Part shown: one piece after another, positions 1,288-10,510 of the stretch
Layout: each line of letters starts with the position of its first letter
How positions within the stretch are numbered: position 1 is the stretch's first letter
Virus record (IMG/VR): IMGVR_UViG_2778261277_000020
Location: 1-12,945 of that record
From: a virus
Taxonomy: Duplodnaviria > Heunggongvirae > Uroviricota > Caudoviricetes
Length of the DNA: 12,945 nt
Strand: one strand, 5' to 3'
Program-made: the position numbers and the translations under genes
The notes under the pieces: generated by a model
What the model saw: the letters and a program-made list of their open reading frames with translations, nothing else
What the model was told of the DNA's origin: nothing
Databases searched by the model: none

Positions 1288-3672
1288 TTAAAAATCAGCC
1301 TGACTCGGGATCAGTTTTTGCCAGATAACTGAAACGTATTTTGCCTGGTAACGGGCGTCATCAAGTGCATTATGGCGCTCACCTTCGAATGGAATAGCCG
1401 TTCTGGCATCGAAGTCTATGGCTTTCCCCAGCTCAACGATTGTGCGTACATCGCGATCGTTGTGGTAGCGCCACGGGCAGGGGATCCCCTGCCGTTCATA
1501 TGAACGGCGTAAAATTACGTTGTCGAAGTTGGCTCCATTTCCCCAGACCTGAACAAAAAATTCACCGGAGTTTTCGGCGATAAATTCCCGCAATTGCAGT
1601 AGTGCATCATCTAACGGGATTTCATCGGTCAGAATGGTAGATTGCGCCTCGCGTGATTGCTTAAGCCACCATTTAATGGTGCCACGATCAATGACTCCGC
1701 CAGCAGTATCCAGATCGATGGTCTTACTAAATTCCGGTCCCATATCTCCGGTTTGCGGATCGAAAAATATTGCACCTATTGAGATAATCGGCGCATCAGG
1801 ATTTTTTCCCATCGTTTCAAGGTCGATCATTAGATGGTCACACGTCCTGCTGGTGGATGTGATAACGTGATGACCATTCACCGTAATTAAGGGATCTGTC
1901 GTCTCGCCAGTTTCACTATCGCTGGCGTGGTCCTGAGCGCTGCCAGCATTCTCCTTGTGTGGATGTTCAGCGCCTTCCATTTCCTCCGGATCTTTTTCCT
2001 GAGCTTCAGCCTGATTTTCTTTATCGAATGTTTCCTGGTATGTTGCGTCGCCCATCACTGCGCCACAATCAGGGCAGTTGCCTCCTCCCGGCTGACCGCA
2101 GGTATCGCAGACTTTCTCCTGCACAGGTTGATTTTCGACGTCGCTATTTTCCGTTTTTTCGACTTCATCTGAGAGGATTTGATGGCCGGGAATCCATTTC
2201 GGATCATTCGGGTCGCTAATCCCTTCAACAAATTCTCCGCGAGAGGCAGCCAGCAACTTATCGGCGTCAGGCTGGCTGACGTTTGCTGCCTGCATAATTT
2301 TGTTTACTTCGTTAGCGGTAACTTTTACCTGATTGACGGGATTTACCTGTGACTGAGCATCCAGCGGCTGCGTGTCCTGATGATGTTCAGTTGCATCCGG
2401 TTCCATTGTTTCAGCCGCTGCCTGTTCACATGCCATTGCGCCAGATGGTTGCGGTTTTTCTGCATCATTTTTTTCTTCTTCTGTTTCTTGCCCGGCAGCC
2501 AGCTCGCGGTTTATTTCTTCCAGAATATCTTTTTCCGGTGTATGTCGGGCAGCCGTGAGTGTTTCCTGGCTGGGGTTCTCGTGATCAGTCTCCGTTAAAT
2601 GGGCGTTGATATACCCCTGAAGGCGTCCCGGGTAGTGATAAAATTCAGGGTGTGCGCTTCGGATAAGTGCAAAAATAGCGGCGCGAGAGTAGTCCAGGAT
2701 ACCCGGGGTTGAGCGAAGTGCTGCTGACCACTCCCTGAACGGACTTTCTTTCTTCCGGACGATTTCTTTTGCGCGGCGATAAACGCTGCCAGGAATGTCA
2801 TAAATATTAAAATCCATCGGAAGCGTGGCTGCTGCAATCTCCAGATCCAGTGTATCGAGGGTGTGTACTAAATCCGGATTACGATCGGTTTTGTTTCCGC
2901 CTCCGGCATTTGCACCGGAAGCCGTACGGGTGATACGCGAAACACGATTTCCTTTCATCCACTCTTTTGTCAGCAGGCCGCGATCGGTGTAGTCAGCGTC
3001 CAGGTATGCTTCGAAAAAAGCAGTCATTAATCCCAGACTGGAATTAACGGGATTAGGGAAAACTTTGTCAGTGTCGCGAACCAGTTTGTGGTGGTCGCGA
3101 AGTTCCAGTGGGTCGAGCAGGCTGGTTTTGTGCGAAATAGCCAGGGCAGTAACTGCCGGTAGCTCTTCAGCCCGAGCGATATGTAATGCCTGAAGTTCAT
3201 CTCTTGAAACGTGTGTTACTGGTTTTTCGCTGCCGTGTTGAGCAAGCCAACGGATTGCCACCTCCTGACCGGAAACTGGCAGGAGCATGCTCTCCTCAAT
3301 CTCCGTCATGTCTTCGCCGTTAACATTGGTATTTTCGGTGCTGGCTGGTTTGTTCTGCACAGAGGGAGATGGCGCGGTGAATACCATTGTGATGCCATCT
3401 TCACCGCCTTTTTCATAGCGGTTACAGAATTCGGTATCAAACACGCCTTCTGGTGGAAGGTCATTCACAACAGGCAAATGGACGCGAACAGGTTTTTTAA
3501 AGTCCTCTTCGTCGTAACCAGCATCATCCATTGCGACATTACCGCGGGAAACTGCAACAGATAATTTTTTTGCTGTAGTCCAGTAAAAACCTCCTTTAAT
3601 ACCGAGACGTTTTCTGACTTTGTCATTTTTGGCTTCGTAATGGAGTGCAATGTCTTGTTTGTCAGTGCTCAT
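1288..3672 (-). CDS. Exodeoxyribonuclease VIII-like protein (794 aa): RecE-like N-terminal/central region fused to a C-terminal DEDDh (DnaQ-like) 3'-5' exonuclease domain
   Basis: ATG at 3672 with GAGG 9 nt upstream. Central segments ([57 protein letters not shown], Cys-x2-Cys...Cys-x2-Cys [17 protein letters not shown]) match my memory of the E. coli Rac RecE N-terminal region. The C-terminal ~180 aa carry DEDDh motifs (MIDLETMG; [10 protein letters not shown]; HNALDDARY). Confidence 0.8.
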
Positions 3673-4523: not shown

Positions 4524-5078
4524 TCAATGGATATTAAGTAACTGCTCCACGGTCATATTTTTAATTACGTCCCTGTTCACAAGCGTCCATCCCTGTTTCT
4601 CCAGATAAAAGCGGAAGGTATCCAGGGTGCAGACCATTGCACCATCAGGAACGGTTTCAGTGAATTTGATGTTGCCGTGTTCGTCGAGACGGATAACCAG
4701 GGTACGTCCGTCCCCGTGAATCATTTTGTCGGGAGACGGGGCGTTATTCTGGCGCAGTTCTTTCTCCATGCGATCGAACTCAGCGATGTAGGCTTCTTTA
4801 AATGCAGCGGCTTTTTTGCCGGTGAAGCCCATCACCAGGAAAACGAAGCCGTTTTTGGTGATTTGGTACATAGGGAGTTTGCGTCCTGTTGAGTCGGTGT
4901 ATTCGCTCGACACAAAATTGTGCTCAGTGAATTTTGCTGAACAGTCCAGATTGCGAATTTTATCCAACACTCGTTCGTGGCGTTTACCAAAGAACTCGGC
5001 GATCGCAACAGACGTAGTGACAGCGCGACCATTTTCGATGGTTACATCAGGGTGATAAATGGTAGGGGTAGTAGCCAT
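4524..5078 (-). CDS. rha: Rha-family phage regulatory protein (184 aa)
   Basis: N-terminal ~100 aa (IENGRAVTTSVAIAEFFGKRHERVLDKIRNLDCS...MYQITKNGFVFLVMGFTGKKAAAFKEAYIAEF) match the Rha domain as I recall it. ATG at 5078 with GGAGG 8 nt upstream. The 282-aa ORF in the track is an in-frame upstream extension that contains a terminator hairpin. Confidence 0.8.
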   Translation of the reverse strand: MATTPTIYHPDVTIENGRAVTTSVAIAEFFGKRHERVLDKIRNLDCSAKFTEHNFVSSEYTDSTGRKLPMYQITKNGFVFLVMGFTGKKAAAFKEAYIAEFDRMEKELRQNNAPSPDKMIHGDGRTLVIRLDEHGNIKFTETVPDGAMVCTLDTFRFYLEKQGWTLVNRDVIKNMTVEQLLNIH

Positions 5079-5244
5079 GATGGCAGCCTCCGCGATGAAT
5101 TTAATTAACTCACCACCAGAGGTGCTAATCTCATGGGTGGTGAGACGCACAGGGTTAGCACTACCGGTCATCACGGAACCCGGCCAGCCTTGCGGCTGCC
5201 CTGCACGCCTCACCATAATGCGAATGTGGCTGTGCTTAACGCAT

Positions 5245-5267
5245 AAAAAAACCGCCTGAGCGCGGTT
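5245..5267 (-). terminator. Minus-strand intrinsic-terminator-like hairpin (6-bp stem AACCGC / GCGGTT, 6-nt loop) followed by U7
   Basis: Plus-strand sequence AAAAAAACCGCCTGAGCGCGGTT at 5245-5267; on the minus strand this is stem-loop plus TTTTTTT. Confidence 0.5.
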
Positions 5268-5948
5268 ATGCGCCGTGATTGACTTCGGGGTGCTAATCCC
5301 GGCACCCGTTTTATGAGGTGCAGATGAACTATAATTCCACCCGTACTGGTTTTCAATAGCTACATTCAACATTTTCTCTTACCCTTCATCACCGAAGTGA
5401 ACTTTGTTGATGCAGTGCCTGGTGCCTCCAGGTGACGTTAACCAGTTAACAATTAACGCCGGAATACAGAAGTATGCCCGTTACGCCCCGTAAAAGACCA
5501 CTTTACGGTTTTAACTGTTCCGCGTGCGCTTAGCCGCATTCACCGCATCACAAAATTCACTTTAAAAAGGGTGGCAGAGCAGTCACGGAGTAGAACTGAT
5601 GCCACCAAAGACTACACATGGGTATTGTGGCGGGGCTGTCACTTAAGCGTATGGTCAACCTGACAACCCGGTGCATTTTCTGGAGCAATGGAGGAAACCC
5701 CAGCCATACTTACCGCCGCGCCATTTCGCGGATTGCCACAACCGGAAGCGCACGTTCGAGGAAATCTAACGACAAGCCTTCTAAGGGAAAGAGCTTCGCC
5801 GTACGCTTTCGCGTTATGCCCTGACTTTTCAGGGAAATATCCTTTCAGTAAACTGTCAGTACCGGATTCTTATCCGTGTCCGGCGCACGACCGCACGTGA
5901 CAGCGTGTTGGTCTCCATTTTTAACCCAGAACCTCAATGGAGGATAAA

Positions 5949-7234: not shown

Positions 7235-7522
7235 TCAGATAGAGGAGGGAAATTGTCGGCGAGCATGTATCACGCTTACAATCTCAATGCTTGAAGCAGC
7301 TACTCTGTACAGGATTATGTAGTTAGGGTGGGTCACTATCTCTCTCACCCCTGAAACCCGTTCGCTTAGTGGATATAGGTACGGATGCTCAGATAGAGGT
7401 AATACCGATGTTTCAATGCGTATTTTTAGTCTGCGCGCTGCCGGTGGGTTCTCCTTGGCGATGTAAGTTATGATCTGACGCAAATCATCGCGAGCAGATG
7501 GTAGCCATAAAATGGGTAACAT
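7235..7522 (-). CDS. parE: ParE/RelE-family toxin (95 aa)
   Basis: Sequence LRQIITYIAKENPPAARRL...IVSVIHARRQFP is typical of ParE toxins; start overlaps the antitoxin stop (TAATG). Confidence 0.85.
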   Translation of the reverse strand: MLPILWLPSARDDLRQIITYIAKENPPAARRLKIRIETSVLPLSEHPYLYPLSERVSGVREIVTHPNYIILYRVAASSIEIVSVIHARRQFPSSI

Positions 7523-7713
7523 TACTCGCTCCTGTTAGTTACAACGATTTGAGCAATAAGATTTTCCATTTCAGCCATTACCTCGTCATGTGGAATTGCG
7601 GGACGAGGGTCTGCAAGGCTCGACGCTACTTTAGCGCGCAACCATTCGTTGTAACTGTTTTCTTGTTCGATAGTTTCGAATTCTGAAACTATCGGAGAAA
7701 GGGCTGTACCCAT
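7522..7713 (-). CDS. paaA: PaaA2-like antitoxin (63 aa)
   Basis: SEFETIEQENSYNEWLRAKVASSLADPRPAIPHDEV matches my memory of PaaA2 from the E. coli O157 paaR2-paaA2-parE2 module; GAGGAG SD 7 nt upstream of ATG 7713. Confidence 0.75.
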   Translation of the reverse strand: MGTALSPIVSEFETIEQENSYNEWLRAKVASSLADPRPAIPHDEVMAEMENLIAQIVVTNRSE

Positions 7714-7740: not shown

Positions 7741-8142
7741 TCACGCCCGGCGGCTTTTTTGTGCCGCCAGCCACCGGGCAATGGTTTCTTCCATTGATTT
7801 TTTCTTGTCTTTGATTTCTTGAAGCATTTTTTCTTGGTCTTCCTCAGGGAACGCACTAAAAGCCTGGAGCAGTTCGCGTTGGCGAGGACCAATTTTCATC
7901 GTGTCAGGGGTGAAAATTTGCTCCCCCTCTTCAGGAGGCAATAAAAACCAATGCAATGGATGCCCTGTAACCTCAACCAGTTTATCCAAACTTGAGGCTT
8001 TAGGTGTAGCCTTACCGCTGACCCATTGTTGAACAGTTTGTTGTGTCACACCAATTCTACGGGCAAGCTCAGCCTGGCTCCATCCAGTTTCCTGAAGAAG
8101 CTTGCTGATTCTGTACATAGATACTTCTAGGGCGCTCATCAT
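7741..8142 (-). CDS. paaR: PaaR2-like / CI-like HTH (XRE family) transcriptional repressor (133 aa)
   Basis: N-terminal HTH (WSQAELARRIGVTQQTVQQWVSG); first gene of the three-gene cassette; divergent from a cro-like gene across a palindromic operator; no SD before the ATG (possibly leaderless). Confidence 0.75.
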   Translation of the reverse strand: MMSALEVSMYRISKLLQETGWSQAELARRIGVTQQTVQQWVSGKATPKASSLDKLVEVTGHPLHWFLLPPEEGEQIFTPDTMKIGPRQRELLQAFSAFPEEDQEKMLQEIKDKKKSMEETIARWLAAQKSRRA

Positions 8143-9003: not shown

Positions 9004-10044
9004 ATGGCTAACGCCTGGCTCAGATTATGGCATGACATGCCAAATGATCCTAAGTGGCGAACAATTTCCAGGGTGTCAGGACAGCCAATCGCAACAGTGA
9101 TGGCTGTGTATATCCACCTTCTGGTGAGCGCGTCACGAAATGTCACGACATGTCACGGCGTGTCACTACGTGGTCACATTGATGTCACGACGGAGGATTT
9201 AGCAAGTGCGCTTGATGTGACGGAAGAGGTAATTGATTCAATTTTACAGGCAATGCAGGGGCGGGTACTTGATGGAGATTTAATCTCTGGATGGGAAAAA
9301 CGCCAGGTACTGAAAGAGGACAATGGCAACGTTTCACAAACCGCGAAATCCCCGGCAGAGCGCAAGAGAGCGCAGCGCGAGAGGGAAAAATTACGAAAAC
9401 AGAATGAGGGGGGGCATGACGAGTCACGCATATGTCACGACATGTCACGACGAGTCACGACAGATAAAGATACAGATAAAGAATTAAACCCCACACATAA
9501 CGCGCGCGTGCGCGAGAGTGCTCCGACCAGTGAGTCGAATGGCGTGCCGTTGCAGGCAGCGGAACCTGATTACCTGGAAGGCCTGAGCGAACCCATCGGG
9601 AAATTTCCGATGACTGATGGCTGGCATCCGTCGCCGGATTTTCGACGGCGGGCAGCTCTGTGGGGAGTGGCTCTGCCGGAGCCGGAATTTACACCAGCTG
9701 AACTTGCCGCCTTCCGGGACTACTGGGCAGCGGAGGGTAAAGTTTTCACACAGGTTCAGTGGGAGCAGAAATTCGCCCGTCACGTAAATCACGTCAGGGC
9801 GCAGGTTAAACCAGTCAGCAAGGGGGGGAACCATGCAGCAGCACCAGGTGGCACCGCATCACGGGCAGTTCAGGAAATTCGGGCAGCACGTGAGCAGTGG
9901 GAACGTGAAAACGGATTTATCAGCGACGGAAACGGCGTGGAAGCTGTGGGAACTCATGGGGGAGGTTTATTCGAACCGCTGGACCCAGAAGAACGGGGCC
10001 GCACCTTCGAAGCTCTGGATTGCACAGATTGGTGCGATGACTGA
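9004..10044 (+). CDS. Replication initiator, lambda O-like (YdaU / DUF1376-type N-terminal domain), 346 aa
   Basis: ATG 9004 with AGAGG 5 nt upstream; N-terminus [36 protein letters not shown]; two iteron clusters inside the gene, as for lambda ori within O. Confidence 0.7.
9132..9190 (+). repeat. Iteron cluster 1: six direct repeats with GTCAC core at about 10-11-bp spacing
   Basis: CGTCACGAAA TGTCACGACA TGTCACGGCG TGTCACTACG TGGTCACATT GATGTCACGA read directly. Confidence 0.6.
9423..9482 (+). repeat. Iteron cluster 2 (four (T/A)GTCACGAC repeats, 10-bp spacing) followed by AT-rich direct repeat CAGATAAAGA x2: probable origin core
   Basis: GAGTCACGCA TATGTCACGA CATGTCACGA CGAGTCACGA CAGATAAAGATACAGATAAAGA read directly; iterons plus adjacent AT-rich tract is the classical lambdoid ori layout. 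Confidence 0.6.
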
Positions 10045-10510
10045 GCAGCAAATCCGACAGGTCTGCCGCCAGTGCATGGACCGCTGCCGGGCGGGTGAAA
10101 CATGGCCTCCGGACCTGGCTGAGTTTGTGGCGCTGATTTCGGAGAGTGGGGCAAATCCATTCGGTCTGACGGTGGATGCTGTGATGGAGGAGTACCGCCG
10201 CTGGCGCAACGACTCCTGGCGATACGACGGAAGCGATAAATACCCGTGGTCTCAGCCTGTGCTGTATCACATTTGCCTCGAGATGCGGGCAAAAGGGGTT
10301 GAGCGTCAGATGACCGAAGGGGAGTTAAAACGACTTGCAGAACGGCAACTGGCGAAATGGGCAAAACATGTTGGTATGGGCCTGAGTGTTCCGCCTGTCC
10401 GGCGACAACTGGCTGCACCAAAACGCCCGTCGGGACCAACGCCAGTTGAGTTGCTGAAACAGGAGTATGAACGCCGGAAAGCGGCTGGTTTTGTTGGAGT
10501 TGAGAAGTAA
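9833..10510 (+). CDS. Replication protein, lambda P-like (helicase loader), about 225 aa; start uncertain
   Basis: C-terminal half ([40 protein letters not shown]...[16 protein letters not shown]) resembles lambda P as I recall it. ATG 9833 has a G-rich SD (AGGGGGGG, 4-nt spacer) but implies a 212-nt out-of-frame overlap with the O-like gene; alternative starts at 9956 or 10037. Confidence 0.6.

Follow-up and report, generated by a model that had tools for sequence, protein, structure and literature searches.

Where does a lambdoid prophage start its replication when its initiator gene is not a homologue of lambda O, and why should one such gene carry the same short DNA repeat in two separate arrays? 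Both questions are raised by a 12,945-nucleotide stretch of viral DNA, which was analysed as a whole and is here called the window. It makes up the early region of an Escherichia coli prophage, lambdoid and of the CP-933P/Sp12 type (Rac-like), and its genes follow one another as integrase, ExoVIII-like nuclease, DicB and DicF, ParE2/PaaA2 toxin-antitoxin, PaaR2-like repressor, Cro-like YdaS, CII-like YdaT, initiator, P-like loader, DUF1627 and DUF977. The ParE toxin (7235–7713) and the PaaA2 antitoxin (7741–8142), both on the minus strand, lie beside a helix-turn-helix repressor. CP-933P has been described with the same paaR2-paaA2-parE2 arrangement (PMC8630535), which identifies the type of the prophage. 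The same paper describes this gene order and calls the initiator gene "o homolog"; iterons are not mentioned there. The minus-strand gene at 1288–3672 codes for 794 aa with an exonuclease VIII (RecE-like) N-terminal region and a C-terminal Rv2179c-like 3'-5' exoribonuclease domain. The features of the initiator locus are as follows.

9004–10044, plus strand: initiator gene (346 aa), with both arrays and the AT-rich tract inside it.
9132–9189, plus strand: array 1, six direct GTCAC(G) repeats with a period of 10–11 bp.
9217–9222, no strand assigned: lone GTGACG, 33 bp past array 1, an inverted GTCAC or a centre-base variant.
9411–9417, plus strand: decayed fifth copy of array 2, GGGCATG here versus TGTCACG in most close relatives.
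9423–9459, plus strand: array 2, four direct GTCACG repeats.
9460–9492, plus strand: AT- and purine-rich tract, a putative DNA-unwinding element, ACAGATAAAGA twice and then ATTAAA.
9499–9516, no strand assigned: GC-rich near-palindrome ACGCGCGCGTGCGCGAG immediately right of the tract, a possible part of the origin.
10037–10510, plus strand: lambda-P-like gene for a helicase loader, whose start was set by comparing it with Rac-SA53 ydaV.

The GTCAC cores of array 1 start at 9132, 9142, 9152, 9162, 9173 and 9184 on the plus strand (offsets 129, 139, 149, 159, 170 and 181 within the gene), at spacings of 10, 10, 10, 11 and 11 bp or about one helical turn; four of them read GTCACG, one GTCACT and one GTCACA. 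The GTCACG copies of array 2 start at 9423, 9434, 9444 and 9454 (offsets 420, 431, 441 and 451; spacings of 11, 10 and 10 bp). The distance to the first copy of array 2 is 291 bp from the first copy of array 1 and 239 bp from its last. A preliminary description of this DNA had claimed six plus four copies of a GTCAC core with helical-turn spacing inside the initiator reading frame, in clusters about 290 bp apart, the second being followed by an AT-rich direct repeat (here 9460–9482), and all of this was confirmed. In the window GTCACG occurs 13 times against 4.86 ± 2.36 in shuffled sequences, none of 200 shuffles reaching 13 or more copies. Eight of the 13 copies lie within the two arrays, and outside the arrays the frequency of GTCAC/GTGAC is random. 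Because the copies occupy all three reading frames, they are not amino-acid repeats, a candidate that was ruled out also by the freezing of synonymous sites in the cores only. Around array 1 the G+C content is about 50% and there is no AT-rich neighbour.

We then asked how widely this arrangement is conserved. About 30 species, all beta- or gamma-proteobacteria, have the two-array layout, with the arrays at matching positions of the gene. Typically, four GTCAC copies stand at gene nucleotides 129–160 and three to five copies at about nucleotides 380–430; this typical GTCAC layout was found at 25 loci, from Escherichia, Shigella, Rahnella, Serratia, Pseudomonas, Bordetella, Chromobacterium, Aquitalea, Acidovorax, Gilvimarinus and others, whose proteins are 60–99% identical. 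Relative to the common four-copy form, two of the six copies of array 1 here make up a 21-bp, seven-codon insertion (TCHGVSL) in the alignment. Among the 80 closest IMG/VR contigs, the copy numbers of the two arrays are 6+5 (49 contigs), 6+4 (25), 4+5 (4) and 3+3 (2), copies being gained 21 bp at a time, which leaves the reading frame intact. Tritos, a viable phage, has a complete genome of 46 kb in which these two are the only arrays of at least three GTCAC copies; no third, remote array of the kind of SPP1 oriR was found in it. The preliminary description had named lack of conservation in homologues as grounds for giving up its reading, and that objection falls away, as the repeats are conserved.

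The conservation was analysed further at synonymous sites, namely the third positions of conserved four- and sixfold degenerate residues at 24 GTCAC-type loci from different species (60–99% identity). Third-position entropy is 1.1–2.0 bits outside the cores and 0–0.5 bits inside most cores of both arrays. The frozen core codons include GCG TCA in 22 of 24 loci, GTC ACG in 23 of 23, and GGT, TCA and GTC each in 24 of 24, TCA/GTC belonging to array 2. Also in array 2, the codons CGC and ACG that follow the cores are looser (18/24, 0.9–1.0 bits). The spacer codon Arg56 has 1.77 bits. By this measure array 1 is conserved as strongly as array 2, and, as judged from such comparisons, the repeat cores of both arrays are under selection at the DNA level. 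The lone GTGACG shows a similar pattern: the Val72 codon is GTG at all 19 GTCAC-type loci with Val there, AC comes next in 17, and the flanking codons are variable, while L027, a locus of the GTAAC type, has GTTAC in its place. No other DNA-level constraint was seen between the arrays beyond this codon. The helical phasing between the arrays, examined as possible evidence for looping, is only weakly non-random: it gave Rayleigh p values of 0.01–0.06 from 12 non-independent architectures, is sensitive to the assumed helical repeat, and concerns a distance that is also set by the length of the protein.

Both arrays change their core together. They read GTAACG at four loci (L025, L027, L036 and L037) and CGAACGC at four others (L031, L034, L035 and L040). 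GTAACG arose in no fewer than two protein backgrounds: L025 and L027 are 84–85% identical to the GTCAC-type L026 but only 60–67% identical to L036 and L037. The protein of the window is 80% identical to a CGAACGC-type protein and equally close to other proteins of the GTCACG type. In the folded domain there are six positions (31, 46, 47, 48, 58 and 62) at which no CGAACGC-type protein has the consensus residue of the GTCAC type. Position 31 is variable in general; the other five, all coded by array 1, are the only residues of the domain that track the repeat type (GTCACG, GTAACG or CGAACGC), and the rest of the N-terminal domain does not cluster by repeat type. It is conceivable from this pattern, if rather doubtful, that the DNA of array 1 codes for the specificity-determining loop of the very domain that reads array 1; alternatively, the loop may vary merely since it is written in repeats. 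If the former were true, the reader and its site would be one piece of DNA, a self-contained and portable specificity cassette, and changes of the repeat would alter the binding site and the binding surface together.

Some homologues lack array 1 and keep repeats at the position of array 2, namely L032, L033 and L038 (tract present) and L039 and L041 (no tract). L039 and L041, from a Serratia MAG and Pantoea, carry palindromic CTACGTAG-type repeats at gene nucleotides of about 327–372, and their C-terminal parts are longer and different; they may represent another origin design on the same N-domain scaffold.

Array 2 is followed directly by ACAGATAAAGA in two copies, at 9460–9470 and 9472–9482. 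The G+C minimum of the gene (30%) lies at 9460–9499, and its least stable 35-mer falls in the AT-rich tract. A purine-rich tract of the AGATAAAGAT type, preceded by (A/C)(C/T), stands directly after the last iteron in all iteron-bearing homologues except L040, and its AT content is 62–82% in 32 of 34 loci, genes of 31–40% AT included. In GC-rich hosts, D, K and E codons ending in A or T versus those that do not number 108:22 in the tract and 391:482 elsewhere in the gene (odds ratio 6, p = 5e-17, the loci being phylogenetically non-independent). From this codon bias it follows that the AT-richness of the tract is selected as DNA, beyond the coding of a DK-rich linker, as far as sequence comparison can tell. 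To the right of the tract, the near-palindrome is conserved together with the DnaT-type C-terminal module, in which it codes for NARVRES, and it is found in ydaU of Rac-SA53 too.

Other signals were searched for around the arrays. Matches to DnaA-box-like and IHF consensus sequences are at or below chance, with none perfect near the arrays; between 7600 and 10200 no promoter-like site was found, and terminator-like matches are at chance level. Rfam gave no RNA family in the origin region, its matches falling at 5133–5620. Above the gathering score these are a C4 antisense RNA (5133–5220), isrK (5245–5321) and DicF (5569–5620), all on the minus strand. The Ash/Rha reading frame (4524–5372, minus strand) shares its 5' part with C4 and isrK; its true start may be further downstream, or else an antirepressor-like gene may be under the control of these RNAs, as in P1/P7.

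The initiator protein consists of a winged-helix N-terminal domain (about aa 1–100), a disordered basic/acidic linker (aa 101–165) and a DnaT-like C-terminal domain. In a Pfam scan of the whole protein the DnaT domain in the C-terminal half is the sole match, and the N-terminal 165 aa have no significant Pfam match even with E values up to 10. A homologue of lambda O was ruled out, as no lambda O family is among the Pfam matches. The N-terminal domain matches phage_rep_org_N (TIGR01714, NCBIfam) below threshold (E 0.0018, 18.5 bits versus a cut-off of 49.8), its predicted fold is a winged helix whose nearest relatives are DnaD-NTD and RepA_N, and PHROGs place the initiator in the families "replication initiation protein" and "replisome organizer". 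A sequence search of the PDB gave marginal DnaT matches alone, from C-terminal alignment columns contributed by homologues. The gene had been called "O-like" in the preliminary description, and this name holds by analogy but not by family, given the missing lambda O match and the DnaD-NTD/replisome-organizer-like N-terminal domain.

On this protein, array 1 codes for the last part of helix 3 and for the loop that precedes the helix-turn-helix (aa 43–62), where pLDDT is low at aa 49–55 and the TCHGVSL insertion is modelled as a low-confidence loop. Array 2 codes for aa 140–152, part of the disordered linker (pLDDT below 50), and the AT-rich tract codes for the linker between the N- and C-terminal modules. 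In the structural model, both arrays are thus placed where the initiator protein is least constrained. The canonical recognition helix of the N-terminal domain is acidic, variable and not conserved. The downstream gene is a P-like helicase loader by Pfam (Phage_lambda_P, PF06992, E 1.1e-15) and by PHROGs (PHROG 109, E 2.5e-61), and its ATG at 10037 overlaps the last codons of the initiator gene, an overlap which suggests that the two genes are translationally coupled.

The gene is a mosaic. Over its C-terminal half and the P-like gene, the DNA shares about 95% identity with ydaU and ydaV of Rac-SA53; the match to ydaU (95.5%) covers the C-terminal half only, from position 9462 of the window onward. 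In megablast searches, phages that share the N-module match as far as 9482 and the match to Rac-SA53 ydaU begins at 9462, and hence the mosaic joint is the AT-rich tract, the matches of the two module types overlapping at 9462–9482. Rac-SA53 has a AAAGATACAGAT-type tract at its domain junction as well; unlike the gene here, however, its YdaU has an N-terminal sequence that does not align and no GTCAC arrays. The two-array layout was looked for in this DUF1376-type YdaU and is not present. Just upstream of the AAAGATACAGATACAGAT tract, Rac-SA53 ydaU (L004) carries a perfect 10-bp inverted repeat, TGTTCAAACA/TGTTTGAACA, at 1441–1450 and 1464–1473, which may be the recognition site of a different, oriJ-like origin type.

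The N-module, both arrays and the tract form one mosaic unit that is joined to different C-modules, and the arrays always go with this N-domain and never with a DUF1376-like N-domain on the same C-module. Of 5426 complete E. coli genomes, 2201 have the N-module together with both arrays, at up to five places per genome; the module occurs in O157:H7 strains, and the gene order of the CP-933P/Sp12 immunity region is the same. It is not carried by any classical model phage. Many database relatives of 9004–9498 are annotated as "partial", with contigs that end within the gene, probably because near-identical copies (up to five per genome) break short-read assemblies. The viable phages 689R5, Evi and Tritos (L001–L003; L123 32105–33175) have the same N-module and arrays and a different C-terminal half that ends in ..IPPGFRG. 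Their annotation shows neither a P-like loader gene nor one for a helicase downstream; these phages must have some other way of recruiting the host helicase.

To judge by these comparisons taken together, the repeats function as DNA elements: their conservation is at the DNA level, and they vary in step with the lineage of the initiator. The reading we prefer, to which we give a probability of roughly 0.6, is that the replication origin of this CP-933P/Rac-type prophage lies within its own initiator gene and that array 1 cooperates there with array 2. The N-terminal domain would bind the GTCACG repeats, each helical turn taking one protomer and all protomers lying on the same face of the DNA. 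Array 2 and the tract, at the DNA that codes for the flexible inter-domain linker, would form the core origin; they are taken as the core because they are the counterpart of ori-lambda and SPP1 oriL, and the relatives without array 1 that keep repeats at the array 2 position point to the same assignment. Initiator oligomers at array 2 would open the AT-rich tract, and the DnaT-like C-terminal domain together with the P-like loader would bring in host DnaB. Since array 1 is as conserved as array 2 and the two switch their core jointly, both are probably read by the same protein. Array 1, with the GTGAC at 9217, would then be a second initiator-binding array about 230–240 bp upstream of array 2, where the DNA codes for a surface loop of the proposed binding domain, and most likely it cooperates: initiator oligomers would bridge the two arrays, with a loop of about 230 bp between them, and the bridged arrays would make a larger and more stable initiation complex. 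The origin with initiator-binding iterons that the preliminary description had proposed is thus well supported by comparison, in the selected cores, the concerted switch, the tract and the P-like loader, and whatever array 1 does, a two-part origin is very probable here.

Phage origins that have iterons and an AT-rich element within the gene of the initiator are, as a general kind, well known, and several such systems can be set beside this one. In lambda, ori lies within O and has four iterons and a 39-bp AT-rich region, its sites forming one cluster of four inverted repeats of about 18–19 bp that are bound by dimers (PMC6022878). As in lambda, array 2 stands at the inter-domain linker inside the initiator gene with the AT-rich region on the right-hand side of the iterons, a P-like loader gene follows immediately downstream, and the N-domain and origin are inherited as one specificity module. 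Unlike lambda, the initiator is not an O homologue and its C-terminal domain is DnaT-like, and the repeats are direct 6-bp cores every 10–11 bp in two arrays 230–290 bp apart. In SPP1, the repeats and DUE of oriL lie within the replisome-organizer gene 38 (PMC5737612, PMC6316719). The locus here is similar in its candidate "replisome organizer"-type initiator (as G38P), in the direct repeats and AT-rich putative DUE within the initiator gene, and in having a second repeat region, which in SPP1 is bound by the same protein (PMC5737612, PMC6316719). However, the second region of SPP1 is about 13 kb away, intergenic and with its own AT-rich region, whereas both arrays here are in one gene and the tract is at array 2 only; host phylum and repeat sequences also differ, and the sequence relationship is marginal. 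SaPI origins have short penta- or hexanucleotide iterons, read by a winged helix, in variable number and in two groups (PMC9371898). The short iterons in two groups of variable number are shared with the locus here, where the winged-helix reader is a predicted one. In contrast, the SaPI iterons lie downstream of rep, in opposite orientations flanking a central AT-rich region, and the SaPI initiator is the helicase itself, while here both arrays lie within the gene, as direct repeats, to one side of the tract.

Other roles for array 1 have to be weighed. First, array 2 and the tract could be the origin and array 1 a site of negative control by titration, handcuffing or a transcription roadblock, which we consider unlikely. 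By handcuffing, array 1 would pair with array 2 or with the arrays of sister copies; as a roadblock, initiator bound to array 1 would block transcription of the rest of the initiator gene and of the P-like gene, and thus autoregulate. Two-array replicons are known in which one initiator binds two separated arrays of one repeat, as with incC/incA of P1, incB/incC of F and ori/crr of P4; one array is the origin, and the other is either needed in cis, as P4 crr is, or a copy-number control that works by pairing, as P1 incA is. The same core present twice, with one array adjacent to the tract, does resemble P1 incC/incA and F. The arrays of P1, F and P4, however, flank the initiator gene or lie far from it, their initiators belong to other families, and the repeats of P1 and F are longer; the likeness to the arrays here is one of layout. 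The missing AT-rich neighbour of array 1 (G+C about 50%), its position in a transcribed gene upstream of most of the coding sequence, and its dispensability in some relatives all speak for negative control. Nevertheless, negative copy control is typical of plasmid-type maintenance and not of lytic lambdoid replication, the window has no plasmid-like partition functions, and the conservation of array 1 equals that of array 2.

Second, array 1 could be a fork or helicase barrier that makes initiation unidirectional to the right or serves a theta-to-sigma switch, by analogy with G38P at SPP1 oriR. G38P binds the second repeat region of SPP1, where fork stalling by the bound protein has been proposed (PMC6316719), theta replication that starts at oriL runs in one direction (PMC5737612), and both arrays here lie left of the AT-rich tract in a single orientation. 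But the second site of SPP1 is about 13 kb off, not 230 bp, and the case is one of analogy throughout, so that we regard this role as improbable.

Third, another protein, a host factor or a phage regulator, could bind the repeats, whose role would then be regulation and not initiation. The recognition helix that is not conserved would fit this. Against it, the arrays are tied to this N-domain and are never found with the DUF1376-like one, core switches happen within the family and in unrelated hosts (which argues against a host factor), the complete Tritos genome has no further arrays, and DnaA-box or IHF consensus matches beside the arrays do not exceed chance; we hold such a binder to be very improbable. 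Finally, a functionless by-product of coding or of replication slippage, to which the varying copy number of close relatives (from 3+3 to 6+5) might be ascribed, is hardly credible in view of the copies in all three frames at a 10–11 bp period, the synonymous positions frozen inside the cores only, and the concerted change of core in both arrays.

The cooperating two-array origin within the initiator gene is therefore the reading that we keep. Our literature search found no paper with GTCACG iterons and none describing an origin in this gene, and the papers that mention oriJ give no oriJ sequence. The repeat itself, the conserved split into two arrays within one gene and the concerted core switching are not described in the papers searched, and neither is an array within the DNA that codes for what is predicted to be the binding domain. 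With this system one can ask how an initiation complex is built from a DnaD-like winged helix and short repeats in helical phase, and whether a second array acts positively or negatively. The core switches (GTCACG, GTAACG and CGAACGC) are natural specificity variants, and the core types bear on replication incompatibility or cross-activation where several related prophages share a genome. From the sequence by itself, the arrays would show where the origin of such a prophage lies and which specificity type it has.
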